From Sphyrna mokarran (taxonomy: Eukaryota), in the NCBI GenBank assembly GCA_024679065.1, contig JAGIQG010000012.1, positions 9,796,001 to 9,860,000 of the forward strand: 64,000 bases of DNA, read 5' to 3'. A program made the position numbers and the translations under genes. Of this stretch, positions 13,900-46,000 are shown in pieces. Each line of letters begins with the position of its first letter. Position 1 is the first letter of the stretch. Under the pieces are notes generated by a model. The model was not told where the DNA came from. It saw only the letters and a list, made by a program, of their open reading frames with translations, and ran no database searches.

Positions 13900-14862
13900 C
13901 TGGGGTTGCGGAGATTGAATGGGACTGGGTGAAATGAAGGGGACAGGGGAATTGAGGAGTGGTGGGGGGTGCGGATTGAGGGGGACGGGGAATCGAGGGA
14001 TGCGGGCATTGAGGTGGTGGAATCGAGGGTGGAGAAGGTGCGGGAATTGGGGACGGGGAATCGAGGGTAGAGGGGGATGCGGGAATTGAGGGACGGGGAT
14101 CGAGGGGTAGAGGGGATGCGGGAATTGAAGGGACGGGGAATCGGGGTAGAGGGGATGCGGGAATTGAGGGACGGGGAATCGAGGGGTAGGGGGATGCGGG
14201 AATTGAAGGGACGGGGAATCGAGGGTAGAGGGGATGCGGATTGAAGGGACGGGAATCGGGGTAGAGGGGTGCGGGAATTGAGGGACGGGAATCGAGGGTA
14301 GAGGGGGATGCGGGAATTGAAGGGACGGGAATCGAGGGTAGGGGGGATGCGGGAATTGAAGGGACGGGAATCGGGTAGAGGGGGATGCGGGAATTGAAGG
14401 GACGGGGAATCGAGGGGTAGAGGGGGATGCGGGATTGAAGGACGGGGATCGAGGGATGCGGGAATTGAGAGGGACGGGGAATCGAGGGGTAGAGAGGGTG
14501 CGGGAATTGAGGGGGACGGAGAATCGAGGGGTAGGGGGGATGCGGGAATGGGGACGGGGAATCGAGGGGTAGAGGGATGGGATCGAGGGGCGGGGGGGTT
14601 GCGGAACGAGGGATGGGGGTGCGGGATTGGGGGGGACGGGACAGGGATAGAGGGAATTGAGGGGGACGGGGAATCGAGGGATAAGGGGCTGCTGGAATTG
14701 GGGGGAATGGGGAATCGAGGGGTACAGAGGGGGTTGCGGGAATTGAGGGGGACGGGGAATCAGGGATAGAGGGGGTGCGGGAATTGAGAGGGATGGGGGG
14801 GTTGCGGGAATTGAAGGTCGGGGAATTGAGGGGCAGAGGAGGGCTGCGGGAATCGAGGGGGA
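13900..14862 (+). repeat. G-rich minisatellite, unit about 40-42 bp (GGGACGGGGAATCGAGGGGTAGAGGGGGATGCGGGAATTGAA)
   Basis: About 20 tandem units read directly, degenerating at both ends. Confidence 0.95.
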
Positions 14863-15404
14863 AGAACCAGGTGGGCATCATTTTGCTCCCCTCAAGCTTT
14901 TTCTCCACATCGACAAGTCCCGGCGGCATCGTGTTTTTGGGCCGTCTTTTTTTCTTTAAATTCAAAACCGAAACAAGAATGAGGTGTGGGGTGAGATATC
15001 TGCACATCAGACTTTCTTTTAAAAAGGGGGAAAGGACTGTGTCAGGGTGATCGCCATCTCACCACCAAGTTGTCCCCCTTCCTCGTCCCATCTGTGTAGG
15101 TAATTATACAGTGTTTTTTTTGCAGTGTACGTGCGTGTCTTTTCCTTTGTGAATCTGCGCCAATTAACCATAAACCAGATGGGACTCTTCCAAAAATTAA
15201 GATGAATTAAGGCTTTTTGGTATGCAAGAACCTTTCAGTTTTTTTTTTAAAAAGTCAGCCAAATCCTCCCACCTAGCTGAACTTTTTTTGAAACAGCCCT
15301 GTCCCTTTACCTGCAAGATGGCCATCATGATATCCCAGGGGGGAATTTAGGACAAAAGCAGTTTGTGGCCTCACAATATCATTAACCATCTGTGAGGTCT
15401 CATT

Positions 15405-21997: not shown

Positions 21998-22046
21998 ATG
22001 TTCACTTCGCAAGTCACTTTCAAAATCAAAGGAGTTACACTTCCAG
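21998..22046 (+). CDS. GPCPD1: GPCPD1 exon 2 coding part (MFTSQVTFKIKGVTLPG); exon starts at 21958
   Basis: Acceptor actgtag|, AACATG start, donor CCAG|gtatta; matches human MTPSQVAFEIRGTLLPG. Confidence 0.92.
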
Positions 22047-25000
22047 GTATTAAAGGATTAAATTATATGTTGAAGCAATTTGCATAAGTATGAAATTGGA
22101 ACTGCTGAATGAAATCTCACATGTGGGTGGATGCATGCATGTCTCCATCAGGAAGGAAATAAATTCCATATTCAACAATTCCTTATGCAGTTATTAAATT
22201 TTAATTATTAAGTTTTAAAGTAATTGTTTTGGCTTTGTGCCATACTTACTGCTTTTTTTTAACCGGTTTAGATTTGAATTAATATGATCTGTTTGGCAGG
22301 CATTTATGCAACAAAGTTACTTTTAAGTGTAGCTCCATGGTTGTGAATCACAGGGAAGTAATTCTGGTGAATTGTTCTGTGTATGTCTATAACAAAATAT
22401 AGTTATGATTCATAATGTTTTTAGTCTTGCCTTAAAATGTTTGTCAGAAAAGTTTTATTGCCATACCTCCTCATATTTTCCACTAATTGGATGTAGAACA
22501 TTTTATTTCACAATAACTCATTGCCTATGTTTATTTTAACAGGCAGCACTTCTGTGATAACATTGCCATGGACATCTTTTTGTCCAGATTATTTAAATAT
22601 GAATGAGTTCAATGCATTTGATTGACAACAATCCAACATTGCTGTTGTGCAAGTCTCAATCAACGACAAGTGAATTTGAACAGCCATAAACACAAGTGAT
22701 ACTTGCCATTTGGCCACTGATAAGCTTACATATATATCTTACAAAACCTACTGTTGTTAAGGTACCAGAGCAGAAACACAAAGTATATTATGAAGCCCAA
22801 CTAGACCCCAACAGCATATTTCACTCCAGCTATGATTCTATTGACACATTAGGAAGCTTTTAGCAAAAGAAACTTTATTTAAGAATACTATAACTAATCA
22901 GCTTAACTTTTACCATTTGAAATACTTGAGCATGACAAGGTACAGTTCTTAACTGATAACCTATCTCTCTTAGTTCTAATTTAACTAATAATCCTGTTAT
23001 AGACTCAAAATCAGTCAGCAACACACAGACTTGTACTTGGACTGCTCGTCCTTGAGCCATGATGTGAAGATGCTGGCATTGAACTGGGGTAAACACAGTA
23101 AGTCTCTCAACGCCAGGTTGAAGTCCAATAGGTTTATTTGGTATAAACGTCACTAGCTTTTGAGGTTTGCCCCTTTGTCACGTGAGTGGGAGTTCACCCA
23201 TTCCCATTCACCTGACAAAGGGGCAAACCCCGAAAGCTAGTGGCGTTTACTACCAAATAAACCTGTTCAACTTTAACCTGGTGTTATGAGACTCATTACT
23301 GTCCTTGAGCCTTCAGAACACCACTGGCGGGAGACAGTTGTTCCCTTAGCAGGTCCCAAACAACAACCTCAGAAGACAGAAAGAAAGAGACATCTCTTGC
23401 TTCTTTTCAGAACCTGGCAGTAACTGTATTTTCCTGTAAGCTTAGCTGCTTCCTTTAAGCACATGATTGTCAATCTGACTCATCAAAATTCTGCACTGAA
23501 ACCGCAGGAGAAAAACGAAATAGACAAAAATCAGTTAACTCAATTTAAAACAAATATATCCTGAGGTAAAATCAATCACTAGGCTGTATTCTCAGTATGT
23601 GAGCTGCTCAATCCCCAGACAAGTAAGCACAACATAAAACAGAGCTGAATTTTAAACATACCCATTACAAGAAACATGATATAAATTTTTTAAGGTACAA
23701 TATTGTCAACTGTCTGTAGTTTGACTGAAATGCTTCTCTTCAACCATGCTAGAAAACTGCTTACAGGTGCTAGGAGACTTTGGCTTCTCTTTAAAAGGTG
23801 TCAAATTATCCATTATCTTCAGAGTTAAAGGCAGTCCACAAAGAAACATTTTCTTGACTTTTGAAGTGTGCAAACCAAGATGCACATTGAACGGCTCGTC
23901 CTGCTCAGAAGACTTGTTTATTCTGGAAGTTCAGTTTATGCATCACTTGATGACTTGCTTAATTAATAACTTACAGCCGATCTAAAGGATGCAGGCTGTT
24001 ATTTTGGAATTTGAAAGTTCACTTAAAGTATATCTAATTCAACAGTACACATTAGACATTCAACATTTGCAAGTTGTTGCTGTTTGAGTTAATACTGATC
24101 TGAAGAGGAAAACATTTGTTTGCATAGTGCTTCTTGATAGCTGGTGATGTAAATGCCATACGAGTGGATTTCTCCATTAAAGGATTTTGGCTGATTTCTA
24201 TTTGTTAGTATGCCTGCCTTTTTGTGTAATTGGGCCTTTCATGTCAGTACATATTTGATGGACCAAAGGGCCTGTTTCACACTGTAGGATTCTGTGATTC
24301 TGTTTTTTAGTGACATTGGCTATATTAATATGGAAATAGATTAAAAAGTGGAAATTATTTTCTGCAGAGTTCTTTGCACAAGCGCTTGTTAGTGCGACTC
24401 TGTAATATGTCTTTTTATTGTGCGATTGATTTAACCAAAGGTAGCATTAGCCAGTCAATTGTAGCTTGGCTGCTAAATTATTGAGATAGTCATCATCTAA
24501 ATCTAATAATCAGAGTTGTTATTACAAAATCTATACTTTTCATATTTAACCTGTTAACGTTTGTGTGCACACGTGTTGATCCCTTTTTTCTCCCGTTTGG
24601 TACCCTAGGTGAAGTGTTTGCAGTATGTGGAAATTCAGCTGTACTGGGTAATTGGTATCCACAGAAAGCAGTGCTTCTGGAGCCAGATGCAAACGATAGG
24701 TAAGTGTAAAAGAGGATGGATTGCTGCTGGATAAATGGTCAGATTTGTGAAAGTGTCTAATCCGTAAATACAGTACAATAATTCCAATTTATTCAGTCTG
24801 GCAGTTACCTATCTGGTTTTTACAGTTTTATTTCATTAAAATTTATTTAATTCTTTTGGCATATGTTTTCCCTCATTTGTTTTTCATGCCGTTAATTATT
24901 TTGGCAGATGAAATTGGAGACATTGTCTATCAGTTATCGCTGTGGTAGTAAAACAGTTCGAAAGATGTAATGTACTGCTTAGGTTCCTCTGTACCCAAGC

Positions 25001-28000
25001 AGTGCTGGGGTGTGGCGACTAGGGAAGTTTCATAGTAACTTCATTGCAGTGTTAATGTAAGCCTACTTGTGATACTGATAAATAAACTTGTTTAAAAAAC
25101 TTAAAAGCTATCTAAATTAGGGCCCATGATATTGGAAAGCTGGTTACTGTGACTCAAAATAGCGGTTAGTATATGTTACTTTTCCTAATTTGAATAGAAA
25201 TAAAATTACTGTCCAGAATGAGAAGGAAATCTACAAATTACCCTGAGACACCTTTTGATATTTGAGTCAGATATTTTCCTACTTTATTGATTCTCGGAGG
25301 GCTGAAGGGCCTGTTCCCACGCTGTACTTTTCTTTGTTCTTTGATAAGAGGAATGGTATTGTTTCTGACATTTATTGCTCTTTGCCTTTCACGGTTAAAA
25401 GCAGGTTCTGCTTGGTTTAGGCTTAGCTCTAACAGTCTATTAATTCTGCTTTTTTCCCCTTCATTATTTATGTATAGAGGCTCGTTTAAGGCTTAGGTCT
25501 CAAGTGAGCAAGTATATAAGGTTTATTGTTTGTTAGCTCACTTTAGCCTATAGTTTGACAGGTCAAATTTTGATCTGATTTTCAGTATCCCTTTTGCGTA
25601 AGTCTTGATATTTTTTAAAATCTATATTTTAAAAAATAAAAAACATGGTGGAAGCAAGGAGGAAGTAGTGCCTCATGAAATTGATTGCTTTGGTGACTTT
25701 ATATCGGAATCAGTTATCTCCAATTATCCAGTTCTGTAAGTTAGTTAAAATTTAGAACTTCAGTGTGCACTCAATACCTTGGCTTATAAACTTAAAATAC
25801 TTTTATTCCAATACATTTTTTCACTATTATCAATCTTTAACTCACCTGCAATTTTGTACTGCCTTCTGGTCCAAAATGCTAGCTGACTGTTCATGTGCTT
25901 TGAAAGTTCTAATAAGTTTGGTTAGTGATGGCCTCAAAAATTAATACAAATGTTTGATTTTAAAAAGATGTTTCTGCAATTTTTCTGCAGCCTAATATGG
26001 AGAGCAACGGTCATTCTCCCACTATCCACCGTTTTCCAATATCGCTACTTTAAATGTTACATCATGGAACCTAAGGTAAGGTGCATTTTCTGGATTGTAC
26101 TAAATCTATGTTTAATTTTTGATTTTTCTTTTGGAGGATTTCCTGTTGTAAAATCGAGTTGTTTATTAAATGCTTCATTGTGTAAGCAAATACTAGGAGG
26201 TGTGTACGGTCAGGCCAGAGTTTTCTTACCTGGTATTTCCATTTTTCTCTCCCTCCCTCCTTGAGAAGGGGCAAAATTTGGCTCCATACAGCTGAATAGC
26301 CCACTGACATCATAAATAAAATGAAGTGAATTCTATAGGGAATAAAGGGAGTGAAAAATAATTGGTTTTCTAGCTTAGATTTTTGTCAGTAAAAATTCTT
26401 GTCTTTAACCCATCTACCTCTGCACTGGATGCTATCTATAATGATTGGTGATATTTTGTGTCTTATTAAATTTAAGATAAATTATGATTAATTGGTATAA
26501 GTATAATTGATACATTAAACTGTTCTATTCACTTGTTCTGCATTGGCAACTTCACTCTATATTGCATCAGAGACTCTCCTTCAGCAAATGTATCGACTTG
26601 ACACATCCCTTTCCATCCTTTTGAGTTATATTTTTGCGTGAGGGTTTATTATTGTTTGGTTCATTTTAGCAGCAGTAAATAACCTATTGCATTACTTTAT
26701 TTTCTCTCAATTGGCAATCAGCTAGCTTCTTTAACTAGCCATTAGATTTCTTTTAAAGTCAGCATGTTGCAAGTGATTCTTTTTTCCATTTTTCTACACT
26801 TGGTTTTTGAAATGAAGAGTGGCAATATTTAGAGGATTTAATAACCTGAGTGCTTCAGTTTTAATTTGATTTGGACTTTCTGAGAATGCACTAACAATTA
26901 AATGTATTTTTTCTAATTAATTGCTGCTGTAACCAAAATATACAAATCAACATAAATTGAAGTAAAAAGAAGCTAAGCTGTTTATTGGTGTTGCCACTAG
27001 GATTTCTGTGAACTGTTATGGTGGCTCTGAAATTTTTCTTTGGCATGATTGTGCCAGGTGAGAACATTCTGAGCAATATAACATAGATTTCTTGTTGATG
27101 GTGGTAGAAATAGTTTGAATAAAAGCAGTCAAACTGTTGTTGGCTTAAGTGGAATCATTTTTGGCCGTTAGTACTTGTACCTCTGAACAACCTAGTGACA
27201 ACGCTGATTTTAATTTTATCTGTTGGTTTCAAACAAAAACTGAGACATTTAGAAATGTCCCCTTTTCTTTTCATGCTTTGTGCTTACGCATGTAGCTATT
27301 TTGATTAATAATACACTTGGTTTAAAAAAAAATTAACCATCAATTGTAAGCGCAGGCCCAGATAGGGAATCAAAGCAAATATTATGGATTTTTATGTATT
27401 TTAAATGGACTGGTGATTGCTTGAGAAAGAATACCAATAGAATATTAAAGCTTGCTTGTGTTTTTTTTTAATTTTCCTGTGCTCCATAGTGTTAGTGAAA
27501 TCCTAACAAGAGAACACTTGTTCAATTTTTAGTGCCTGAAGAATTTATGCATTGCAACATTTTTGCTCTGCTGTCCCCATCTTGTTTCCCCTTCATTTCC
27601 CACACTGGTTGGTGTCGCCGTGAGGAATATTAAAGTACAACCAAAAGTGGAGGAAATGTTTTGCGAGGTGCCAGAGTGCTGAAACTGCCCAACTATTTTG
27701 TGTAGATCCTTAAAAGCTGCAGAAGACTTGTTTCATTAGTCCCTGTTGGCTTCAGACTTAATTGCAAGAGTGAAAGCTTAATTCATTTCCCATCATGATC
27801 CTTTAAAGTAACTTGAAGAAGAATGCTAGGTTTATTTTATATCAACTTCCTCATTTTCAGCAATCAGTACTTTTAAAGTTCAAGGTTATTAGTTACGATA
27901 TTGAAGAGTGAGTTTAAGTTGCATTTTGTAATTTTATGTATGGTACATGTATGATGATTTAGTAAAAATAATTTAAACCCTTTATTTCCTATTCAGGTCT

Positions 28001-31000
28001 TGCTGGGCTATGCACCTTCTGCAGACCTGGCAGCCTGTTCCTATGCATCTGCCAGTGCTGCTGTTCAGTCAGACAGCCATTCGAAGGCTCATGACAACCT
28101 GGCAATAGGACTCCTACCAACTTTTCTCTCCTCTAGAGAATTGATGGGACCTCTGACAGAAATGTGAGATCGGAACTCTTCAGTGAGAAGTTCAAATTTG
28201 CATCTCTCCTGTGGTACCATCTGTTGGTGCTCTGATATGCTGTGTTATTAAATTGTACTGTGGTCAATCCAGTTTCAATATTGGTTGTGATCCTCAGTAC
28301 CTGTAATTTTAGGCAATTGTGTTACTACGTGAAAAGCACAGATTGAAAAATTTGTAAACGTTCTACCAGAAGTGGTTAAAAACGTATCTCTTGTCCTCTG
28401 AGCTTACATTTTCTTCTAGTCCTTTTGTATTATTATAAAGGGCTTTAATCTTTTTATCACTTGACTCAGAACCCTGCTGATCTTCGGCAAGTGCTAGTCA
28501 ACAAGTGGGAGACTCATCCTCATCCACGATCATTTAATCCGTCGGGTATGTCACTACAGTGTATTGAGTTTCTGTTATCTGCCAGATTGGCAATAGCAGA
28601 GGTACATGTAATTAAATTAAGCATCTGACAGTTGCCATTTACTTTTCAAATTCAGAGAGTACTACTAAACGTCAGTCTTTTATTACCACATTATACTTTG
28701 ACTCTTGCGAACCAAATGTTTGTCACATTGGACATAAAGTGTGACCAGCATTTCTAAACAGCAATTTTTCTCCTTTTCCTTCCCACCTGTCTCTACAATT
28801 CTTGCCTGGTTACACTCTCAATCTATATTCTAGATATTCTGAACCAAGATTTCATAATGGTCCTTTAATCTGACCACTGGAATTTAAGTGGTTCTATATT
28901 GGCTGACATTGGCCCTCGCGCATGCTGCTGCCCCCCCACCCACCCACCACCACCACCACCCAACCCAACCCTGCATGTGCGACTAACTTGTTCCCCCCAA
29001 CCCCACCCATGCACGCAAATTTGCTTCTTACCACATTGAAGCATTATTCAGTTGTATCCCTGGACCTCTTGTCAATTTGAACCATTCCTAATAAAATGAG
29101 TTACCTTCTAGCAATTTAATTGTCAATACTGAAGACCAAATTAAGTTTTCTCAGAAGATGCTGTACACGATATGTTGGACAGCACCTCATGCTGGTAGAC
29201 AACGTATTACTGCAGCTTTTTCACTCAAAGAAGTTTTCCAGGTATTTAAAGTGAAGCTACTTTGGGTTAAGTAATGCACTGCGCTACATTTGCACTGATG
29301 ATCCACATTTGTGGAAATAATGTTTAGTGCCAATTCTTTTATCTTTCCACGTGCATATACCTTAGCTTATGACTTGTTATGTCGACTGTGTAATTTTTTA
29401 TCCCTAAGTTTATTTTCAATTTTTTAAGCATACAAAATAGATTTATTTTACAATTAATTTTTGTCCCAATCCCAAGTAACTTCAATAAAGGTTTCTTATA
29501 AAGATCTAATTTCTAATGAGTTTCCTTACGTGTAAATAAAACTAAAGATTGATCCTTCAAAATACAATTTTTCTAAGTGTCGCACAGTTTCTTCCACTTG
29601 TCTACCTTGATCACTGGTGATGAGCTTTTACCATCATTGCATCTCTGATCCAGCTGAATAAGCTATTCAGAAGTATATTCCCACAGTTGAGTGAATAGGA
29701 TTGTAGTATTGGTGTGTTGAGACTGAGTGATGCAACATGTATCCCCCCGCCTCACACTCAGCAAAACAGCATGCTGCTGTTTCAGCGTGGTGCACCGCGG
29801 CTACGCTTTTCTCTTTAATATCTAAAGTGCATTAACTATTCTCCTATGTGCTGCTGCTGAGTGTGCCACTTTGCACCTGATTTGCCATTAAGTTTTTTAT
29901 TAAGGTTTGTTAACGACAGAAGAAAGCATTTAAAACACCTAGGAGCTATAAATTGAGAAGAATTAAACTGCATGTCACGGGTGAGTACGTTATTTAGGAG
30001 CAGGGTGTATAACTCATCATTAGAGCCAACACAAGATAACATGTGATGCTGAAGACACAACAAAAGAAACAGAAGCAGGTATACACCACATGGCTCATCA
30101 AACCTGCTTTGCCATTCAGTAAGATCGTGGCTGATCTTGGGCTTCAATGCCATTTTCCTGCCTGCTCCCCATGTGCCTTAGATCCCTGAGACCAAACTTC
30201 TGTCTATCTCAGCCTTAAATGTATTTCAACAATGAAGCAAAGGAACTGGTTGCTCAGTTCCCCCAAGATGTTGCTGCTGTAGTTGAAGCACCAGAGATAG
30301 TATCGCCTGATGAAAATAGGACATCTTTGGGTTCTCCACTGAATTTCCTTACGTTTCCATAATGAAGGTAACTATCCCTTAACACTGGCCAGAGTTCACT
30401 TAAGCTGCGGTCTGGAATGTCTGACTCATGTTCTTCACCAAAATGAAATCAGCTTCCTTCCAGTATCTCAGTACTACCCCTTTTGTTAATATTTAAAATT
30501 CAAATAACAGAAGTTTTTTAGAGCATGCCATTGTTTGAGCTATAATTCTGTTAAAACTGGAATACAGTCCAGGAGACTAGTCCTTCACTATTGAAGGTAT
30601 GTTCTTAAGTCAGAAATTCCAGTATCATCCTGGCTCTCGGACTGTTGAACTTACGGAATTCAGCACCACCTCTTCTGCCTGATTGAACCTGGTCCCAAGT
30701 TATAAGGCACACCAGGGGCCAAGATGTAAAATTACATTAGTGTACATTTCTTATGCAGCATAGCTTTGGCATTCTGTCCCATGTGTCTGGGAATGCAATA
30801 AATTTGATATTTTGCACCTAGCATAAAGACAGCTAACAACTTTGGACATCAAATATATGTAGCACATGGGTGCCACATACCAATAAGCTACTCTATAAAA
30901 TCTTTTAGAAGAATGGCACTTGGCTTCTGGTGACTCAACAGTTGTGTTAACATCTGACTGTTTTATAAAGGAGATAATGTTTGTGACTAAACTTTGCAAA

Positions 31001-34000
31001 TGATCCCATTCTGATTGTATATAAAGCTTCCCTTGTTCTCTATTTACCTATCCCTTTAAGTATGTGGGCTTCTTGCCTTTGCTATGCTGGAGTAAGTCAT
31101 TAAGAGATTCAAGTAAAACATGTATTGTCTTGCATGCGTACCAAGGGCTCTGAAGGTCTCTTGTCCAGATTTTAACACTGGGTAACTAAGAGCACAAGGA
31201 ATAAGGACCTTGAGTTTAGAAGCACTATTGTGTACAGTAATCTTGCACCTCTCTCCAACAAAAAGTACCAGAGTGTTAAATTATATCACATCCTAACTGC
31301 AGCACAGAAACTTTAAATCTATGCCAATGTTCATGTCTCATGCATGCCATCTCTGATCTCCCTAATCCATTCAGCATTTCTTCTCTTTTACTTCACTTTT
31401 ATTGCGTCTCCTCTTAAAAAGTCATCAAATCAAGGTTGAATGGAGATCAGGTAATTTTTTGAGGTTGAGAAATTTGTTAGTATCATCATACAAACGTATT
31501 TTAAGAATGTAGTTGAGAAGTGCTGAGGTCATTTTTTGGGCAATGCACTCTCCATCTGTAAATTAAGGTTGAATATAGTCCTTATTCTAAAACACTTAAA
31601 ATGGCCAGATCCATTTTTAAAGGTGCAAACTATTTACATCCAAGGTGAAGATCTTTTAAAATGTAAAATCCTATGACAGGTCCTAAACAAGAAGAATCAA
31701 TTGTCGCCATAAAATGACAAATTTAGAAGGGGAAGTTCGGTCTTGCACTGTATTAATAGTAGATCATAAAATATTGACTGAGGAGATGGGCATGACCATG
31801 AGAACTTTTTTAATCCACCTAACTATTTTCACTGCAAAAACAAAGAGAGATGGTCAATTTTAAAAGACCTTTGAATGGCTGGCTTACAATAGCAAAAGCA
31901 TGCCTTGGTTGTTTTATCATCAAAGGCCATCTTTAAGGAAGCTTGGAACTGAACAAATTGGATGAAGTTAACATGCTGGGGACTTTTAACTCTCATAGTG
32001 GACAGTAGTCCAATGAATTGCTGATTCTGATCCATCCAGACGAGTGACAACTGGGAGACTGCTGATTTTAATGATCGAGTCTCATTGACATGCCATTGAC
32101 CAACATACTCACCAAAATGGCTGGGAAAGTTTTTCTCCATTTTGAAAGTGCCATAAGGAGTAGTAGTCCACTTATTTCTGCCCAGTGGAATTTTGCAATA
32201 ATACAGAATATATTGCATATGTCTCCCAGTTTCTGATGTGATTAATTTAAGACTGAGCTGAGGGATTTTTTTTCATTCAATTTTGTGAATCTTTGCCTTC
32301 TGGAATACAGAATCTCAATATATTGTTGGTCGTCAAGAAGGCTCAAGATTAAGATAAAAGTTTTTGAACTGAGGTAATCAAAGGATGTGCTTGGGCAGAA
32401 AAGTGGAATTGGCCATTATCTTGAGGAATGTCACAGGCTTGAGGAGCTGCATGGCATACTCCTATTTGTTGTGCTCTTGGTTGAAACCCATGTTTAGTTG
32501 TGATCTTGATTCCTTAGCTTCCTTATAAATCACTAATCAGTGCTGACATCATTGTTCCCATCATTCACCTTGACTGCTATGGGAAAGAAATGACTCCAAC
32601 ATTTATTTCCAAGTTTTACAAATTTTGTTTGCATTCTGAGAGCTTGAAATGACCTTCAGTGCTCAGTATGCTGTCTGAAAAGGGTGCTAAATCAATTTTT
32701 GGGCTTTATGTTTGAAGTCAGGTCTGTGCTTAAAAAACACTTGTATGTTAATGCATTTAAATCAAGTAATATTTGTGCGTTCAAGGAAAGGTATCTTTTT
32801 AAAATTAATTTAGTTGTCTTTACAGCTAGGAATAGAAAATTTTTTAATTTTAAACTGAATGATGTGTCTAGTGTAACAATTATTGACTTCTCCCATTGCT
32901 TCCTTTCTCTGTTCTAGAACGAGAGTGCATTTTGAATGATGGATACTTTGGAATTTTCAGTAAGTGTACTGCAATATTTTATTGAATATTAAATGTAGAA
33001 TAATTTCAAAGGAGTGTCATATTGGACTCAATGTCCACAGATTACTGCAAGGTGTGCTGAGATTTCTTAGCGCTGTTATTTTTGATTTCCAGAGTCTGCA
33101 GTATTTTACTTTTTATCATAAATATAGGATGGTTTGCAAGTTAGTTGATCAGATCTATATGGAGAAGAGAATCCTGCCATGTAGTACAGTGTATTCCTTG
33201 GAGTTGAATGTGTCTTTCAAAGCGTGGGTGGGTTTCCTTCCGTAGTCCAAAGATGTGCAGTTTAGGTGGATTGGCCATGCTAAATTGCCTCTGTCGTACC
33301 GCATTTGGGGAGTCAAGACCAAGTGCAGATTTCAGGCAAAAGCAAAACCGGAACGTGGGAATGAATTAATCTGTGTGCAAACATCATTCAATCCCCATTT
33401 TAAAACATACTCTCTGCCCTTATTTTTCTATTTCTGGTATAGATTCCTATGTTTGCATTTATAATGGGGCTTACTATGAAAAGTCTGCACTTTATAATGT
33501 GGCATGTTCCTGCTCTGCTAATGCAATATCTCTATCAGAAAAATGTAATTATAGTCTGACCATTTTACAGGGATGAATTCCAACGTAAGTGTTGATGCTT
33601 GAATTTATAATGGATAAGTATTGAGGTGGAAGTGTGTACAAATTTAAGAATTTTAATGTTGGGGAGTAGCATTGTAGAATTCCTGCAAGGTTTAATTTGC
33701 TGATTTTAAAGAAAAATCAAATGAAGCCTTTTGATTCCCAAAAATGTTAACTCTTGTTACTGTGAGATAAAACAGCATCACAAATATAGGATAATTCCAA
33801 AGAAGCATTGTATTGGGCTCAGCTTTTTATATGTCTCTCTGTTTGAGCCTCAGGAGTACGTCAATAGGTTACTAAAGGTAACACAAGCAAATTGATCCTT
33901 TTGTGCCTAAAATATACACTTATATATGCACTACAAGTTTACTGTATTGCAATCTGGTGGCTCAGACAGCTGTCAAGCTGCCCGGATTGATGTCAGTTAA

Positions 34001-37000
34001 TTCATTATAGAGCGGGTTTGGAATTTGACTACTATCTGCTTATCTTAGCTCCTTATTTGGCTACTTTGCTACTAGTGGAGTTCTATTATCTTCAGAAGAT
34101 ATAATTTGACTCACTACCGTCTAATTTTTTAATCGGGGGTGGATTGATGATTTCTGTGTGGCCATTTTCTGTTTTTTTTTGAGTTTTACTGGGGTGTGTA
34201 TAAGAATGGACTTGGGTTTGTACTTTATTGCTGACCTCCTTTTCGTAAGGATTCATGGTTGTTTTGAGATAGAAACTCATTATGGGCTCCAACCACTTAG
34301 TAGAATAGCAGTATTATATACCCATTCTATATCCTACGAGTAAGTTTGACTATGCTTTATAAGATGCTGATGTGATTATGTTTCATGACACTTAGAATTG
34401 TGCACATGCATAATCTGTATTCATTAGAAACTGTTGGCTTGTAATTCTTCCTATGATTCCTATCTGTACATAGGTTCATTTCTAATTCTATTTTTATCTT
34501 GGTTGATGAATGAAATTTCAAGCTATAATGTTTATGACCCATGTTTATTTGTCTAAGTTTCATACTTTTCTCTAAAGTTTATCATACATTGGAGCTGTAC
34601 ATATTACCATGCACCAGCCAAGCCAGTGTATTTTTTAATCCCTTTGTTTACATTCCATTGCACAGATGAAAAAATGTTGAGACATTAGCTACGTTATATG
34701 AAATCTGGGTATTATAAATTTCTGCTCTGTTTTGTAATTGGGCCTGTATCCCTGAACGATGAGAAATTTATGTTCGTTAACCAATATCAAGATGTATACT
34801 AATCTAACACATTGCCATAATGACGGGATGTCATGACCTTCCCATTTACACCCTGTTAGTGAGCCAAGGATAGATGAGGGTTTTAAGCTATTCTACTTTA
34901 TTGTCAATAAGTGAGTCCACAAAGCTGTGGTTAAAGAAAATCTCAAGTCGTGCAACTTAATTTCAGTCTCATTGGTAAGAAAACTCATAAAATTTGTTCC
35001 ACTGACTATTTTGATAGGCTGCAAAAACTTAAATTTTCTTGGAACCATCTTTTTCTGTAACCTGACTAGCTGACTTTACTGTTCTTCTATAACGAAGATC
35101 TGTTCCTCCCTGCCTCGCTTAGCAGCCTTCAAAATACGCATTTAATTCTTCTGTTGTTCCTGGTGTTTGTTGGCAGTGGGGTGGTGACTTGAGCATCAAC
35201 TGTTCCTCTGTTCAAGCTTTGGTTAATGGAGACACTGCTTCTCTCACCCTCTCTTCACAACCCTCTGTCCCATGTAGACCAGATTGGATCACCTCATGCT
35301 ACCTCATCTAATTCGAATTTAGCAGTAACTAGGAATTTGGTATGCGGTTAAAAGTTCAGTAAGTGAATTCTGTAGGGCCTCACTTTCCAAGAGTTTTTGC
35401 AACGGTGTTAAGGGCACTGTGATGTTAGTATACTTTTTAAGATTTTTTTAAAATCATAGTCACAGCCTTAAGTGATGCCATTGGTGAGAGGAGGAAAAAA
35501 CTGCAGATCAGGTGACAAATTTTGTGTTTAGTTTTGTTTTGGCTGCAGTGTTAGAGGCAGTCTTAGAAGCAAGCTGGAAAAGAATGCTCTTTCTATTTTG
35601 AAAGCATGGCCTATTGCCATCCTGCAGTAAAGAATCTGTTTTGGTGTTGGAAAGCTGAAAACTACATCTGCTCTTGAGTTTTCAAGATCATTTGAAAGCA
35701 GCATTCAACCCACACAACTGCGTTCCAGCATCATGTGGGCTTTAGCCTGTGCAGTGATAAATCTGCTTGAAGGTTTTTGTTTGTTGGATTTTGGTTTTAA
35801 TTGGAACACATTGGAGATATTCATTAAGGGATGTACATTATAGCAGTTGGTTTGTTTCTTGTTTGTAATTGATAAAAAGTTGATGCTAATTTTCTTACTA
35901 TACATATTAACTGCATTCTTAATAAACTTTGTTCGATAAAAGCTCTCTACTGGATCACTTGAATTATACCTGAAGTGAAGCATTCGTACTTACCATAGCC
36001 AAATTCAGGATGCAAAATTTATGGCTCTGGCAGGCTTCGTAAAATACTTAGGAGTTTTTGACCTGAATCATAACAGCACCATGAGTGGCTGTACTCCGAT
36101 AGATTCCAAATTATGGGAGTGTCAGTGAAGAAGTGTGTAATCACTGTCAGAAACTTCTGGATTTGCATATTTAACATATCGTGCAGGCTGCTGAAGTTAC
36201 TGTCAGTTTTGGAGGAGCAATGATGCTGAACCCTGACAGCTTAACCATCATTACTACTGAAAATCGACCATAATCTTTCGGTCATCCTTTAATTGTTTAT
36301 TTACCCCAACTGAAACTTTACTCTTGAAAGAAACAAAATACTTCTGCATTGTTGTGACTCCTATCTTCATCCTGTTAATTAATTTCAGCTTTCAGTGCTT
36401 TTCTTGTGAGCATGAATTACTATTTGTACCTTTCGTCTAAATGATTCATGTGTTTATTACTTGTAGCTCCTTAAGGGCCAGTTGCTGAATGTAGCTGCTA
36501 AGATGTATGGCTGCCTTTTCCTTTCAGAACTTTTATATAAGTATATTTTTGGATGATTTGGAATATTCTATACTTAATTGCTGCTATTTGCATCCCTGTA
36601 AATTGATTTAAAGAATCTCTGTAGCATAGGAGGAGGCGGTTTGGCCCATCAAATCTGCATCATCGACAATCCCACCCTAACTCCTTAGCCCCATGTATTT
36701 GTCCTGCTAATCCTCCTGACACTAAGGGGCAATTTAACATGGCCAATTAACCTCACCCTGCATATCTTTGGACCGTGGGAGGAAACTGGAGCACCTGGAG
36801 GAAAACCACGCAGACATGGGAAGAATGTGCAGATTTCACTCAGACAGTGACCCAAAGCCTGAATTGAATCTGGGACACTGGTGCCTTGATGCAGCAGTGC
36901 TTGCCACCATGCTGCCCTTTTTTAAAATGTGACAGCAGCAGTTTGAGCCTCCAAAATCTTTTCCTATCAGCTATTCCTGATTACTAAATCCAATGTATTG

Positions 37001-40000
37001 TCATTGTCTGTATAACTAATCTCTACACAAGTAAGAAACCAGTGTTTAATGTGAATGCCTCTTATAGGGTTGCTTATCTCAGTACTTACGCAATGTTTAT
37101 CTCCGTTTAATCAAGTTCTTTCATCGATACTGACTTCCGTTTACTGGCTCTGATTGCATAGCTGCAGAACCTCATACTTTGGTGAAACAACACCCACTTT
37201 CAGTGTTGGTGTACCATCTTTTTTATGTGGCCAACTCTCCGTAACGTTTGTTCCCGTGTAAACAAGAACAGTAGTTCTTTCCTCATTTAGTATTGCCTCA
37301 ACTCTACCATCTGTCTCAGGCTGTTGTGTAAATAAAGAAACATTACAGAATCGCCATCTAGATAGACATACAGAAGAAGCAGTAAATTCTTATAGATGAC
37401 GTTTTTCCAATCCAAATCTTGAACAGGAAGCATGTGCATTTATGAAATATCTTCCGTGCTCTGAACACATCAGTGAGCCTCATGACCAATTAAGTACTTC
37501 TGAAACATAGTGGACCTAATAATGTGGGGGAATGTGATAATGTGTGCGTAGAAGAGTCCTACAAACTGCAATGAAATAAATGACTGAGAAAGCTTTTCAT
37601 AATTTTGGTTGACAAATATTGGCTAGGACACCAGGGAGGACTGTAATAGCATATGATCTTTTATGTCCATCTGGGTGCGCAACTGAAATCTCCACTTGCA
37701 TCTGAAAGAGCACTTCCCGTATACAGTAAATCTTGTGAATGTCACATATATGCTAAGGTAGGTTATGTGCTGAAGCCACAGAAATGAGGCTTGGAAACAA
37801 CTGAGTGCAACTGCTGAACTAAGGCTGGCAGATTTGAGATGTTCTGTCCCTTCTGTTATGCTGTTGGTCTACTAGTGTTTTTTCTGGTTCTTTCTTTATT
37901 AGCCCACTAGCTTTTTGTAATAGCAACCCAAATCATTTTATTTTTTAAGATTGGAGAGATGATCAGATGAGTAATTCTACTGAGGGTGTAAAGTGAAAAA
38001 GATTTTTGGTGTGAAGATTCAATGCAATTTGGGCAAAGACATGCAGTCAGTTGTTATGGTTGACTGTTTTATTTCAATACTTCGTGTTTTCAATTTAATT
38101 AGATGATTAATTTGTTAGTACTATATAATATTTAGTAAAGGCAATTATCAACAGTGCTACTTTGTAGCATCTTCAGCATCTAATTGTTTATAGAGTCACC
38201 AGAATTATAACATCGTAGTATTTGGCAGTTATTACAAATAGATATTCATTATGATGTTTACAAAAGTATTACACAGGCTGTGCAATGTTATAGTTGGCTG
38301 TGCTGAACTCTCAAAATATAACTTGATGTGAATGATTTTAAAGGATTTCTGCGAATGGGAATAAACCAAGTAACATGATTTGTGTTCACAGATGGTGTTG
38401 AGAAATTGGATTCTGGGTGGTTAACTTGCCAAAGTGAAATTCGTTTGAGGTTGCATTATTCTGAGAAACCTCCAGTTTCCATATCCAAGAAGAAGTTCAA
38501 GAAGTCCAGGTTTAGGTAAACTTTCTCTTTCTAAACATTTAAAGCCATTCAGGATATTAAACTTGGACTTGACAAGATGATTTTGGAACTGTTGTGTGCT
38601 GTAGGTTGAGATCACTAAACTCAATGAGGGCTTATTCTCCACGGATTTGTGTTTAAAAAAAAAATGCAATCATGGAGTAATAACGAATTTTGTATGAAAA
38701 TAACTGAACGTTGTAGATGTTTCAAGAGCTTCCATCGTAGCAGTAAAACATATCGACACTATTACTTCTCTGTGGAAATATTTATAGTGTCAATGCTTTG
38801 CTAGCTATCTGTGAAATAGTGTTTGTTAGAATGTATGTTTAGAGCACTAAGGGTTCTGGATCTTGTCATAGCTAACCGCTTTGCAGCTTTAGACTTTCAA
38901 TCTTAAGATAACATCAAATTTTTGAAATAGTTGCTTTTGTCATAGTTGCTTCTGGCTGTATTTCCTTGTAAATAGGCAAATGGAATTTACTGTGTCTGGA
39001 GCTACTGCAGGGTTTTTTACAGTGTAATTTTGAGAAGTTGAATTGTGATTAAAGAGTTTCTGGATCGCAGTGTGGTATGAATTAGTCTGTTGCTTTTCTT
39101 TTGTCTGAACAGAGAGGGTCATAGTAAAGAAGTAGGATAATCAACAAAGGTTTTAGCAATACAAAGGATAGGGAGGATTATTGTGAAGATATTGCTCTGA
39201 TACTTAATGTTATGGAGCATCATCTTTAAGGAGGAAGAAGAGATGGGGATGTTCACAGAGGGAATAACCAAAATGTAGGGTCTTGACTTCTGAAGACATA
39301 GCAAATAGTGGTTAAGTGATTTAAATTAGACTAATGCAATATATGAGAATTTTGCAGATGGAGGAGGTTGGAGGTAAAGAGGACAAGACAATGTAGTCAC
39401 ATGAAAAACTAGGACAAGATTTTTTAAATTGTGATATGGTATTGGTGAGCGAGCAAGGGTGTGATGGGTGAACATGTCTTGGTGGCCTTTAGCATGTTTG
39501 CATTGGAATTTTGATTGTCAAGAGTGCGTTGGAATGGTCAAGTTCAGAGGCAACAGTGGCTTGGAAGAGGAACTCAGCAGATAAGTTGAGGCAGGAATGG
39601 AGTTGGATAATGTTAAGGGTAAAGAGAGGCAGTCATAGTGTGGTTATGTGGTGGAAGCTCATCTTGGGATCAAGTATGAAATCAAGATTGTGAACACTTT
39701 GGTTCAGCCATTAGCTGTTGCTAGGTAGAGTCAGTAGAGAATGGAGTTTGTGGTGGAGGCTAAGAATTATGCTTTCAGTCTTCCCATTTCCTGATGTGCA
39801 ATTTGAGGAAATTTCTATTCATCCAGTTCTGGATGTCAGACGAGCATAGGGTTTGACAAGCAGAAGGTGAATTCAGAGGCAGCCACTGTGGAGAAAATTT
39901 GCAGAATGCACTCAGCTGTTTTTAGCAAACTCTCTTAACTTATGAAAAGCATCATAAGTGATACAATTGAAGTATTCCAATTAACTTTGTAGGAATAACA

Positions 40001-43000
40001 GTCCAATTTTGGAAAACTCTGAGGAGAACCAATGTATCATGGAATAAAGAAAATGGTTTGAGACTTGTCTGCTATGGGCATGTTTAGCAGAAGGGCAGAA
40101 CCTGGCTTTCTGATACTCGTATAGAATCAACTGCTGCAGCAGATCAGGAATAAATGTAATGCATGAAATTAATTTTCTCCTCCCACCCTGCTCCTCTAAA
40201 AGAAAAAAAAATGAGGCCTGAGTAGCAAGTAAAGGCTGTTACCTGAATTGTTCCAAGAAAGTGAGGGAAAATCTTGGTCCACTTGGGAAGGGGGACTATC
40301 TCATTTCCATTTTTGGCAATTAGCTGGTTGACGTGGTCGTCAATGCTACAGGCCTAATCCACTATGCAAGAGGATATACATTGGACCAGCAAATTAACAC
40401 ACAATGCAATTGAAAAATGTACCATTTAAGATAAGATTCATTCTGAATAGAAGATTGTTTTATGTAGATGGGAATACCTAATGTTGCTGACCCAGATGTG
40501 CAACAAGGTATATGAACAAGGTAATTATATGGTTCTAGTTGAATGTCAGAGGTTTGTAATAACCTTAGGAATTGCTTGAATTGCCTAGCTAATGCACTGA
40601 TCTTGCACACACTGAAAGGAGTTTGCCTTTTCTTATTAGAAGTCATTTTCTAATAAAATAAATGTAAAATTACAGTGAATGTTGAGTAAATGCCCTGCAA
40701 TTTTTCAAAAATTGAATTCTTTAATACTCTTTGTGTTTAAAGGGTGAAGTTGACATTGGAGGGTTTTGAGGAGGAGGATGAAGACGATGACCCCAAACTG
40801 GTTACTACCTCAGTGCAGAAAATGCCCAATACTTTAGAAATTTCCTTAATCAGTGACAGTGGATACAAATCGCGTCATTCCCAGCCAGAGTGTGGCTATG
40901 CCTTGGAACCTGGACAGTGGACAGAGTATAGCATTCAAACCATGGAGCCAGATAATCTGGAGCTCATTTTTGACTTCTTTGAGGTATGGTAATTTTTATG
41001 CTATTGCAGTTCTTTATGAAATAAAAATCTTCTGAAGGAACTATGTAAAATTATACTTTGTGAAATTCAGGATTGAAGGAAAGAACTGATTATGAAACCT
41101 TCATATTGGAAAAGTAATTGCTCTATTCAATAAGGAAAATTATTCAAAGCATTGCTTTGTTGACAAAGTTTGCACCCTTATCCAACACTTTGCTGCTGAA
41201 CAACCTTGTTCTAAGTAAGCCTTTGCCATTCAGTCAGAAGCAGCGTTAAGAATTTTCTCCAAAACAGTGGAACTAAACATTGTATTTTTCAATCTCTGTT
41301 CAACAAATTTTGTGATTTCTTGGGAATTGCAACATGTTAAAGGATGTTTATTGGTCAGGAAATGTAAAGCCTCTGTTTCAGTCCTGGAGAGATTTTGAGC
41401 AGGTCAGTTTTATGTATTTTCAGCTTCCACTTGTATTCCATTCTGGAAAAAAATCTTCAGTGCTGGGTTTTTTGTCATATCAGGAATGAATTGTCTTCTG
41501 TGTTGCTCCCCATCTTTATTGGTGTTCATTTTCAGACTATTGGCTGTTGAGCCCTCCTACCAACAGTTAGCCATAGTCATCTTCCAGTATCAGTCGCTTT
41601 CCAATTTTCTCATAGGCAAACCTTTACTCCAGACTCTGCAAATACATTTGATATGGTTGTTGAAAGAAAATCCTGAGTGCCTGACTATATAGATGTTCAT
41701 CTATTCAGAACACTTATAACAAAGATCTCTTTCAATCTCAGAATAAGGAGTGAAGTGTGAGGCACTGTATCGTACTCTGTTAACAAACATGCTTATGTGG
41801 GGACAGAGAATGTCATTTTCATTTTGCCTCTGTTGTTGGATTACGGCTCTAAATCAGAATCAAATGTTGCTATTAGCAAAAGGTGGAATGTTTGACCTCT
41901 TACTGACACATGAGTTCTCATCATTGCAGCCACTTCAGTGTTGATAGGGTGGGAAGTGTTTTTAATCAAAAGGTGAACCTGCAGTTTTTTTTTGAAGAAA
42001 ATGAAAATGAAGGAAGTTCTATTCTGGGAAGTTTTTTTCTTCAAAAAACATTGATAGCACTTCACTCTTGATAAGCATAAACGCAGACTGTGCTGGTTAG
42101 TAAGTAAAGATCCTGGATACAATAAATATAGGTTAGCCTTTCTGGGTTCAGCTGTTGAAAAGCTCTCTTTATCGACTTTTCATTTTCTGATGTCTCATTT
42201 GGCAGAAGTATTCTTTTCCTATCTGGATCTAGTTCTCACAATCTTCAAATGGTGTTGCCTCCATTCATTGTCTGAAGTAAACCTAGAGTTCAATAAAGCT
42301 ATTAAGCAACAGTTTAAGAGAGCACTAAATGAGCACTGCTGTTAAGATCAAGGCAAAGGTGGAGTTGAGAATGATCCAAAAAGTCAGATGGATTTTGAAG
42401 AATAGATAGCAAAGATAACCAATTGAGTAAGGGCAAGTGGAATGGGTAAGCAGAAAGCAGTGCAGCATAAAAATACTGCCAATCAAATTTAAGGTGAATT
42501 GGACTGTAAGAAACTAAGCCAACGCAGTGATGGGTGTAATCATCTGAGACTGACAATGGCTTAGATAATGGAGTGTAGAGAAGACTTGATTTGATAGAAG
42601 TATTCAAAATCATGAGGAATAGACACTGAATTTGAAGACCGTATACACATTGAAGGATGATTGGTACTCAGCTGGGAATGAAGGTTGAAAAATTGGGCAG
42701 GAGTATTGAAGAATAATTACGTACATCTCTTTTTCTGCTACATTTCTCTTTGGATTTGTTGTTTTATCCAGAATGAGCAAGTTGAATTGCTTGTATTTTT
42801 AAATATTGTTTAAATTTGTATCTCTTGTGTGTTTCTTTTTCAGGAAGAGTTGGGTGTAGCAGTAGTGCAAGGTGATGCATTACCTGGGCTTGTAGGAACA
42901 GCCTGTCTTCTATCTTCAACAATTGTAGAAAAATCCAATGGAGTTATCACACTTCCCATCATGAGCAGAAATTCTAGACAAACAATTGGAAAAGTGAAAG

Positions 43001-46000
43001 GTATCACTATCCAAAACTGGAAGATTGTGTGACTGCATCATTGCAAATTGTACATTGTGTGTTCAGTAAGCTACTCATAATAGTCTGTGGTTGTCTGTGT
43101 TCAATTTAAAGATTTCCTACTGTATATTCATATTTTATCCAAATGCTTTGGACAGCGGGTAGCAAAGTTAACTACTAGATACAAATCATTTTTGGTCAGT
43201 TATATATAATTAAAATAATTTTAAATAAATAGCTATAAATCATGAGCATTACAAATTATCTAACAATTCAGTAACCTAGATTTTAAAGGCTATTAGAATA
43301 ATATGTTGGTGCAGTTTTGTTTTTGTTTATTTTGTGTGTCTTTGTTTTCCTTTGCCAAGTTTATTTTTCATCCTCTTTCAAATCTGTTGACTGTTCATTG
43401 TAGATAAATTAATGGATTCTGGCCATTAGTCAACTGTAAGTGGGTGACTTTTGCATCTAAATAAATTCCAATCCACAATTGCACACCAACTTTCTAGCAG
43501 TGATAGCCAGGTAGTGTTGAGAACCAGAGTTATTTTTCCTCACTAAACCTGATTATCCTCCAAGTTGTGATACTAGACAATGTCAAAGTTGAAACCTTCC
43601 TGCTGGACTTCCTGGTTTATCCCCTTCTATAATGAAACCTCTGCCATCTGTTCATAATTATTTAGGGAATTTGTCATATTTTGCTGCCCAGTTTTTTTAT
43701 ATATAAAAAAAGGCCATTCAGCGCATTGTCTGCATCACTCTCTGAGCATTTCACCTTGCGCCATTCTCCTTCTCCCTGTAACTCAGCACTTTGCTTGTTT
43801 TCAAACAATCATTCGATTCCCTTTCAAATGCCTTAATTGAACCTGTCTCCAACGTACCCTCAGACTTCATTCCAGACCCCTAACTACTTTCTCCTTTTAT
43901 CAGTTATGTTTAATTGAAACACTTTGATTTTCAATCATTCTAGCAATGGAACAGTTTCCACCATGTCCATTTTGTCCAGCTCCTCATGATTTCGAATACA
44001 TCTATCAAATCTCCTGTCAGCTGTCTTTTGTTCAGAAACTTTTCCAAAGTTTCTCATTCCTGAAACCATTGATAAATCTTTTCTGCACATTCTCTCTAAT
44101 GCTTTCATTCACATTGTTCCTAAAATTTGGCATCCAGAACTGAATGCAGTACTTCAGCTGAGATGTAACCTAATGTCAGCTTAACCTGCTTGCTTTTAAT
44201 AAAGCCTTGGATACAGTAAGATGCTAGTTTTTAAAAATGGTCTTAAATTAAGATCTTTTAGCAAAGTAATTAACTACAATGGTTAAAGCTTTCATTCGAA
44301 AATAACAAATAATAGTTGAATTGTTATATATTAAAATTATTTAAATGTTTGATGGACTAGAATTAACCTTGGTATATGTATTAGAAACGAGGGTTCTAGT
44401 CCTGTGAGTCAAATGCAAGTTTAGTAACATTTACTTGAACATATTCTTAGACAATGCCCAGAAAACACACACACTCTCAAATTACAGTAATTGAATTCAT
44501 TTTTCTAGATCTGTTCTGTTTATCTTTGTGCTCTTCAGGTGACATTACTGTATAAGTTCGGCCACAAGACTCCTCCATCACCACCTCCATGACTTTCATT
44601 TCTGATGCTACAGTGACTGTTATTAGCTCAACATTCCAAAGATTTAGTTTCTGCTGTAAGCAGGAGATAAAAGGCTCCACTGCATGGTCTGAAGACATAA
44701 CATAAACTGGCTTATCTATTGACATTCGCATCAAAAGAAATATTCATGAGAAAATTGAAATTGTCCAAGGCTATTTTATTTAAGGTACACCCTTTCAGGC
44801 GTGTTAAGGCTCCATAGATAATTGCCTATTTCATTCAGTCTCTGAAGGAGTCCCCTTTCATCTACAAAAAGGGGTATTTAATTGTAATGAAATTGAAATG
44901 CAACAAAATCTACTGCTTTAGCAATAGCAATTGGATTGTAAAATATTAATCACTTCTGTCTGTCTTTATCTGTGTATGTAGTTGACTACCTCGTTATTAA
45001 GCCTTTGGACGTCTATGTTTGTGACATGTCTCCTTCCTTGTCCAAGTATTGGAAACCAAGAATGGCTTTAGATGTTGGGCACAGAGGTGCTGTGAATACA
45101 TCATCTGCAAAGTAAGTATTAAATTAGTTAAAATCCTCTCATTTTTGATAATCAAAGTAAAGCAGTTGTGAGAGGTGATAACAGCTTTTATAGTGTATTC
45201 GTGCTAAGTTGGGTATATAGCTGAATTTTTTAAATCTACCCCAAAATTGCACCCAAAATACAAACCACAAGAGCATATGGTGCTGCAGTTGCTATTTCCA
45301 CCTTCACTTGTATTCTTAAACCTGTTATCAATTCATTTTTTAAGAGATTAATTAACCTCATGTGAACTGTTCTGAAGATGCCATGTAATTCATAACATAA
45401 AATATAAAATTTAAAGAATGACTGTTCAAACTAAACTTTAAAATTATTTTTGTCCTCAGTCTAAATAGATATGAAATTGATTGTGTTAAAGTGTAAAGTT
45501 CAATTTTGTTTCAAAATGTCACAAAGGGTCAGTGACTTGAATGCCTCTCGCCCCCTTTAACTGAGTCTATCGTGAGTGAGATGTCTATGTGCTTTCTTTC
45601 CTCTTGACTTCCATCCTGGCTCTTGATGCAGGTAGACCAACCATACAGTTCCCAGCATGAGACATTGGGAGCAGTGATTTGTCCATTTTGTTGCTGGAAT
45701 GGACAATCTAAACACAAGCCTTTTTTTTAAACTGTGGTTAAGAGATACCCCTTTTCTGCTCTTCTCCTTCTTCCTTTCTCTCACCTTGCATCTCTGTCCT
45801 TTTTCTTTTCTGTTTCTTCACTCAAGATCACCAGAACCATTGCAAGTGTGTAATTGTGTTGTGATATGTTTGTTGTACTGTTTCCCATTGTAAATACGGA
45901 TTTATAAAGAAAATAAAAGCGGACTTATCTTCAGCATGGCGACTGAATTGTATCTGCTCTCCTTGAGAAAATTATGCTGTAATCCCACTTCATCCTGAAG

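Follow-up and report, generated by a model that had tools for sequence, protein, structure and literature searches.

Several metabolic enzymes are under metabolite-feedback splicing, which acts on intron 4 of OGT, the last intron of MAT2A and a poison exon of SAT1; all three respond to the product or substrate of the enzyme itself. For CLK1/CLK4 the skipping of a coding exon was described as unproductive, with both flanking introns kept and the neighbouring ones spliced (Boutz et al. 2015, PMC4281565, citing Ninomiya et al. 2011). Nuclear detention and release on heat shock, osmotic shock or kinase inhibition were shown for the splicing kinase CLK1 (PMC4281565). MDM4 has the same layout, in which detained introns lie on both sides of a switch exon for nonsense-mediated decay (NMD), and its output is the control of p53, as shown by direct experiments (PMC4281565). 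Another closely related system is GPCPD1 of human and mouse, in which a 76-nt exon, the fifth in order, is skipped (PMC4877444, PMC5000506, PMC4935974, PMC10123112). The searched passages and tables of these four papers mention neither a retention of the flanking introns nor a conservation in cartilaginous fish. In the present analysis, GPCPD1 of the shark Sphyrna mokarran was investigated in a window of 64,000 nucleotides (assembly GCA_024679065.1, contig JAGIQG010000012.1, positions 9,796,001 to 9,860,000). Unless stated otherwise, coordinates refer to this window, and all features described lie on its + strand.

Exon 5 of the shark gene, together with the two retained introns around it, probably forms a CLK1-like switch, i.e. 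an on/off dial of the amount of enzyme that is conserved from sharks to mammals. GPCPD1 shares with OGT, MAT2A and SAT1 that a metabolic enzyme is combined with intron retention or unproductive splicing, but its switch is a coding exon and not a poison or decoy exon. In contrast to CLK1, it encodes a metabolic enzyme and is known here from contigs and gene models; the layout with two retained introns is known mainly from splicing regulators. GPCPD1 sets the cellular flux from glycerophosphocholine (GPC) to choline. Its dose matters, because heterozygous mice accumulate GPC, and the loss of both copies is lethal (PMC11106330). Furthermore, over-expression of truncated GDE5 harms muscle (PMC5033411). 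The original prediction, made from the letters of the window, had proposed an unproductive-splicing control module in introns 4-6 that acts via stop-bearing exons. The region and the class of mechanism were retained by our analysis, whereas the switch is probably coding exon 5 with its retained introns instead of poison exons.

Coding structure of GPCPD1 and the acceptor of exon 5

A protein search with the exon at 40744-40983 as query returned GPCPD1 proteins with those of sharks at the top, and by tblastn with the reference GPCPD1 protein P0001 the coding sequence was resolved into 19 exons between 21998 and 61321. The refined model comprises 688 amino acids free of stops, of which 665 of 689 aligned positions are identical to P0001, confirming the gene name given by the original prediction. 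On P0001 the domains CBM_20, C2_GDE1 and GDPD were found, and the genome search gave a single GPCPD1 match in this genome. Based on the order of CBM20, C2 and GDPD and on the high identity, the gene is classified as the GPCPD1/GDE5 orthologue. The exons are numbered after what we take to be the human order, in which the first coding exon is exon 2.

Coding exon 4 (25991..26075, 85 nt) ends in a strong donor and is followed by intron 4 (26076..28469, 2394 nt). Exon 5 (28470..28545) comprises 76 nt and is separated by intron 5 (28546..32917, 4372 nt) from coding exon 6 (32918..32959, 42 nt). The splice sites were scored with rough matrices built from the 18 donors and 18 acceptors of the gene itself. 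In the leave-one-out scoring, the acceptor of exon 5 was the lowest of 18 with a value of 0.8. Skipping of the 76 nt shifts the frame and leads to a stop after 80 residues at 32933-32935 in exon 6. This stop lies 1504 nt before the last junction, compared to the >50-55 nt that characterize an NMD switch ('essential') exon. Reading through intron 4 would end after 137 residues at 26262-26264, and reading through intron 5 after 127 residues at 28626-28628.

From these properties a sequence of events can be proposed. The weak acceptor would make exon 5 the last splicing decision in the transcript. Introns 3 and 6 would already be removed, and RNA containing introns 4 and 5 would accumulate as a held-back pool, presumably in the nucleus, that could be resolved either way. 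Inclusion of exon 5 would yield the enzyme of 688 residues, and skipping would yield the stop after 80 residues, for which NMD is predicted.

According to the original prediction, transcripts escaping decay would encode CBM20-only peptides. The peptide of exon 5 matches residues 89-106 of PDB 2z0b, an N-terminal construct of GPCPD1, and the three unproductive forms (80, 137 and 127 residues) leave the protein at residue 75 or 100. Since these cuts lie inside the region of the solved N-terminal domain, escaping products would be truncated rather than clean CBM20-only peptides, and this part of the prediction was dropped.

Introns 4 and 5 in shark transcript assemblies

Ten runs from five organisms and five studies cover part of the region, and four of them (X1, X2, X3 and X5; four organisms, four studies) were compared with 24500-38600. 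The runs are small assemblies, none on record as RNA but all presumed to be so, whose contigs give no strand, level, library type or compartment. In all four runs, joints with GT..AG borders were found across introns 3 and 6, the latter leading from 32959 to 38392, and therefore the assemblies represent spliced transcripts. Intron 6 (32960..38391) was spliced out and served as an internal control. In the non-repeat bin 25442-25912 of intron 3 the depth was 0.13, 0, 0 and 0, and in the bins 33449-35332 of intron 6 it was 0 in 16 of 16 bin-by-run cells. Empty cover in parts of these two introns was counted since the contigs join across both.

Sequence of introns 4 and 5, on the other hand, was present in all four runs, end to end in two of them and in pieces in the other two. 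For intron 4, a single unbroken contig spanned 26049-28497 in X1 and X3; for intron 5, the contigs reached from 28516 to 32945 in X1 and from 28516 to 32946 in X3. X2 and X5 contained pieces of both introns, and the listed pieces of X2 showed no differences from the window. Compared to exons 3-4, the depth ratios of introns 4 and 5 were 0.14 and 0.22 in X1 and 0.27 and 0.44 in X3, which are rough values, as contig depth is a poor measure. Introns 4 and 5 were more abundant than the neighbouring introns in all four runs (end to end in two), which is one of the properties of a detained intron pair; the introns of such a pair are also found in polyadenylated nuclear RNA, do not respond to NMD and are spliced later on a signal. 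Contamination by DNA was ruled out as the source of the intron contigs by the absence of introns 3 and 6 and by contig ends at the branch points of the assembly graph, and for the same two reasons an independent nested transcript is unlikely.

To describe the contig ends, an assembly graph with k=31 was simulated for a mixture of the spliced form and a form containing introns 4 and 5; the value of k is borne out by the fit. The ends in X3 (26075, 28497, 28516, 32946 and 32917) were exactly those of the simulated graph, including the branch at the 3' end of exon 4. The contigs of exon 6 started at 32917 in all four runs, and therefore at least two paths enter this exon. In X1, one contig ends at 32945 and that of exon 6 starts at 32917, a combination that requires a third path, which ends in AG and omits exon 5. 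Such a path can be supplied by exon 4 or by exon 2, so an exon-2-to-6 join could also account for it. In this window, the exon-2-to-6 join (22046 to 32918) is in frame and would give 604 residues. The contig starting from exon 6 had a length of 1767 nt in X1, which corresponds to the model length from exon 6 to the stop plus 1, and of 3811 nt in X3. These lengths alone suggest that similar branching is absent at later introns.

The transcript contigs also bear on a second explanation, according to which cryptic stop-bearing exons in introns 4-6 exert the control, working either as poison exons or as decoys by which the introns are kept in the transcript. Retained introns containing decoy exons have been described as a class (PMC6097662). 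The original prediction counted at least three such segments and gave no coordinates, so candidates were chosen by eye (27997-28163, 33571-33584, 34250/34184-34339 and 34666-34708). The best one, a candidate cryptic or decoy exon at 27997..28163 in intron 4, has an acceptor score of 7.9 compared to 0.8 for exon 5, and a contig of X2 (27995-28145) starts exactly at the place predicted for a junction at 27997. This weak hint is opposed by other data. The X2 contig comprises 151 nt and its end does not fit the junction prediction, acceptors of a comparable cut-off number 24-59 in these introns, and no branch interrupts introns 4 and 5 in X1 and X3, where a cryptic exon would have caused a break at 27997. 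The intron 6 candidates (33571, 34184/34250 and 34666) were not seen in the four runs, in all of which intron 6 was joined across, although rare decay-sensitive forms may drop from contigs. Segments with premature stops do exist in introns 4-6, as predicted, but at ordinary density: 64 exon-like segments in 12.2 kb (5.25/kb; 62 with a premature stop) compared to 135 in 25.1 kb of the other 15 introns (5.39/kb; 131 with a stop). Such segments carry a stop nearly always, anywhere in GPCPD1, and with a stricter cut-off six were found compared to 3.4 expected (p=0.13). An action via cryptic exons is considered quite improbable, and the candidate poison exons in intron 6 gained no support.

Exon 5 skipping in other vertebrates

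The skipped form was reflected by gene models of other sharks. In 9 of the 13 sharks with named GPCPD1 proteins, an isoform X2 of 593-596 residues is annotated. In all nine, residues 1-8 agree with the shifted reading frame of the last part of exon 4, with 0 of 20000 random peptides being compatible in each case, and the remainder is identical to the full protein from exon 6 onward. Judged by their sequence, these proteins are exon-4-to-6 gene models.

The same models would permit a second protein, an enzyme lacking CBM20 that is translated after exon 5 skipping from a second-frame ATG in exon 4. In the nine sharks the second frame of exon 4 is open and, without exon 5, runs into the C2 and catalytic domains, so that the models keep C2 and GDPD; two turtles also have an in-frame exon-2-to-6 model lacking CBM20. 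In the present genome, however, the frame of the second-frame ATG (26054-26075) is closed by a TAA immediately ahead of the exon 4 donor. Moreover, the models were selected for an open frame, probably by calling of the longest open reading frame, and the normal start lies upstream, with its frame overlapping the second-frame ATG. A second protein as the purpose of the skip is therefore highly improbable.

In human, inclusion of exon 5 (20:5566840-5566915) decreased by 22 and 40 points with metformin, together with a log2 change of -0.96 in GPCPD1 mRNA, and the exon was also altered by AICAR (PMC4877444). The exons of MDM4 and GPCPD1 shift together under both compounds (PMC4877444). In mouse, the percent spliced in of the 76-nt exon (MmuEX0021570) fell from 76/87/71 to 35/41/53 with thapsigargin, a condition that the paper links to NMD inhibition, while GPCPD1 mRNA increased fourfold (PMC5000506). 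By hand arithmetic, this corresponds to an increase of about tenfold for the skipped and about twofold for the included form. Starvation had no effect on the mouse exon (PMC5000506), and knockdown of TAF15 increased the inclusion of exon 5 (PMC4935974). Among annotated unproductive events, the human exon is classed as an 'essential exon' (PMC10123112). A second annotated poison exon of human GPCPD1 (chr20:5548443-5548488) lies in a later intron and is rarely used (PMC10123112).

That the shark and mammalian exons 5 are orthologous is suggested by their length, their place in the exon order and the match of the peptide with PDB 2z0b; intron 5 has 1.6-1.9 kb in mammals compared to 4.4 kb in the shark. 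The mammalian inputs on record are signals of general stress and energy state (metformin/AICAR with loss of RBM3, TAF15 and endoplasmic reticulum stress), and not choline. Because an exon of the same size is skipped in human and mouse, the shark-specific osmotic purpose suggested by the original prediction is weakened. For mammals, existing catalogues already contain the skipping of exon 5; neither the retention of the flanking introns nor the span from sharks to humans was found in print. In the literature searched, which left out most subscription papers, there was no report on retention of the flanking introns, on the event in cartilaginous fish or on feedback by choline, and no paper pairing GPCPD1 with a poison exon. 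Likewise, nothing on exon 5 was seen in the passages of PMC10825154, PMC8445024, PMC13683050 and bioRxiv 2024.12.23.630108.

A number of observations weigh against a conserved switch. The nature of the runs as RNA is a guess, and their contigs carry neither strand nor level. In X2, retention consists of six islands that cover 1170 of 6766 nt with a depth of 2-7, compared to 90-151 for the exons. The skipped form is indicated for relatives (by the annotations of 9 of 13 sharks, the contig ends of X1 and the human and mouse tables), but among the joints listed, none connects exon 4 with exon 6 for this species; the skip in X1 was deduced from contig ends, and those of X3 give no sign of it. No exon-4-to-6 model is listed for the other 4 of the 13 sharks, for any of the 9 batoids or for the chimaera; this absence is uninformative, because a protein model can arise only where the second frame is open. 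Since 13 of the 17 internal exons have frame-shifting lengths, the frameshift of exon 5 is not special by itself. Per piece, the introns differ from the window by 4.1-10.6%, and an ultraconserved block was not apparent among the related sharks; three exons differ at 8 of 303 positions, and these rates neither show nor exclude constraint. With respect to expression in human tissues, the event at exon 5 is flagged as not significant by the GTEx catalogue (psi range 0.44, z -1.57, columns read by their headings; PMC10123112), and GPCPD1 is missing from the searched supplements of the intron-retention papers PMC4281565 (5 of 6), PMC12808957 and PMC4737145.

Several of these points, namely the low retention in X2, the fact that no ultraconserved block was seen and the GTEx result, would also be expected from an unselected by-product. 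Here, the acceptor of exon 5, the weakest in the gene, would cause the adjacent introns to be spliced last and the exon to be skipped occasionally, the waste would be cleared and nothing would be tuned; the background level of TGCATG and ACTAAC fits as well. On the other side, sharks, mouse and human all skip this 76-nt exon, and drugs or stress shift its inclusion by 20-45 points. As GPCPD1 is dose-sensitive, an uncorrected leak over the span from sharks to mammals is hard to explain. A mere by-product is therefore regarded as unlikely, and the CLK1-like switch of exon 5 with two retained introns is preferred.

Going further, this switch might be a valve throughout the jawed vertebrates, by which GPC, choline or osmotic stress sends held GPCPD1 transcripts either to the enzyme or to decay. 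This extension is speculative and, as it stands, doubtful. If true, the exon 5 valve would correspond, for phospholipid turnover, to the sensors known from OGT and MAT2A, and splice-switching oligonucleotides could raise or lower GPCPD1. The skip of exon 5, hitherto a row in splicing screens, now resembles a switch kept from sharks to humans. Through it, a single defined junction becomes available for assays under choline, osmotic and energy stress, so that the question of feedback can be tested directly, and it offers a possible route to shift the dose of the enzyme.

Further GPCPD1 proteins of other species were noted. The annotated in-frame exon-2-to-6 isoforms of the two turtles are P0033 and P0060. 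For Potamotrygon motoro (P0143-P0149), the first residue of 11 of 13 listed accessions is a methionine of exon 8, which would be expected if the 5' reading frame were disrupted or truncated; no paper on this was found. P0155 and P0049, both from transcript contigs, have their first residues in exon 6 or in the last part of exon 5; this looks like a contig break at exon 5 in a skate-like and a teleost-like sequence, too.

Repeats, CpG, motifs and the upstream region

The original prediction was based on sequence clues, among them the lack of recognisable repeats in 26076-30060, treated as an intron stretch. This interval includes coding exon 5. With 400 kb of the same contig (40 loci) as repeat reference, a library that low-copy and old repeats escape, no match was found from 25362 to 30058. 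The lack of repeats was thereby confirmed, but it is not exceptional within the gene. The longest repeat-free stretch of GPCPD1 is 36926-43726 (6.8 kb; exons 7-9, introns 7-8), and 5 of the 16 introns longer than 1 kb are free of matches (introns 4, 7, 8, 10 and 19). In the portion of 36926-43726 compared with the transcript assemblies, no sign of retention was seen. GPCPD1 as a whole is poor in repeats, with 2.7% in introns 4 and 5 and 15% in the other introns; the mean content of the 40 loci was 44%, and a free run of at least 3985 nt occurred in 1 of 40. A DNA search of 26076-30060 against its own genome returned only itself, which says nothing on repeats, as common words were skipped.

The CpG content of introns 4 and 5 was as expected from the other introns (52 compared to 49.7, p=0.39). 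Of the CpG patches noted originally, a mild increase remained in 28546-30060 (21 compared to 12.3 expected, p=0.015, post hoc and uncorrected). The motifs TGCATG (28972 and 29969) and ACTAAC (28982) stand where the original prediction placed them but are not enriched. Introns 4 and 5 contain five TGCATG (2.7 expected, p=0.14; 30 in the whole window) and two ACTAAC (0.6 expected, p=0.13). The C/A-rich tract 28920..29012, which carries the TGCATG at 28972 and the ACTAAC and lies 427 nt past the exon 5 donor, may be a splicing-factor site at a motif level not above background. When long-range pairing across exon 5 was sought, just short inverted repeats at chance level were found. Altogether, the original prediction found the right place mostly for the wrong reasons; the region is special through the retained introns 4 and 5 around exon 5 and not through these sequence clues.

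Upstream of the gene, a G-rich tandem array with a period of about 39 nt and about 20 copies was observed at 13931-14865. It is CpG-rich, shows a strong GC skew and is located about 7 kb before the first coding exon. A CpG-rich stretch immediately precedes the array and probably contains exon 1 of GPCPD1.

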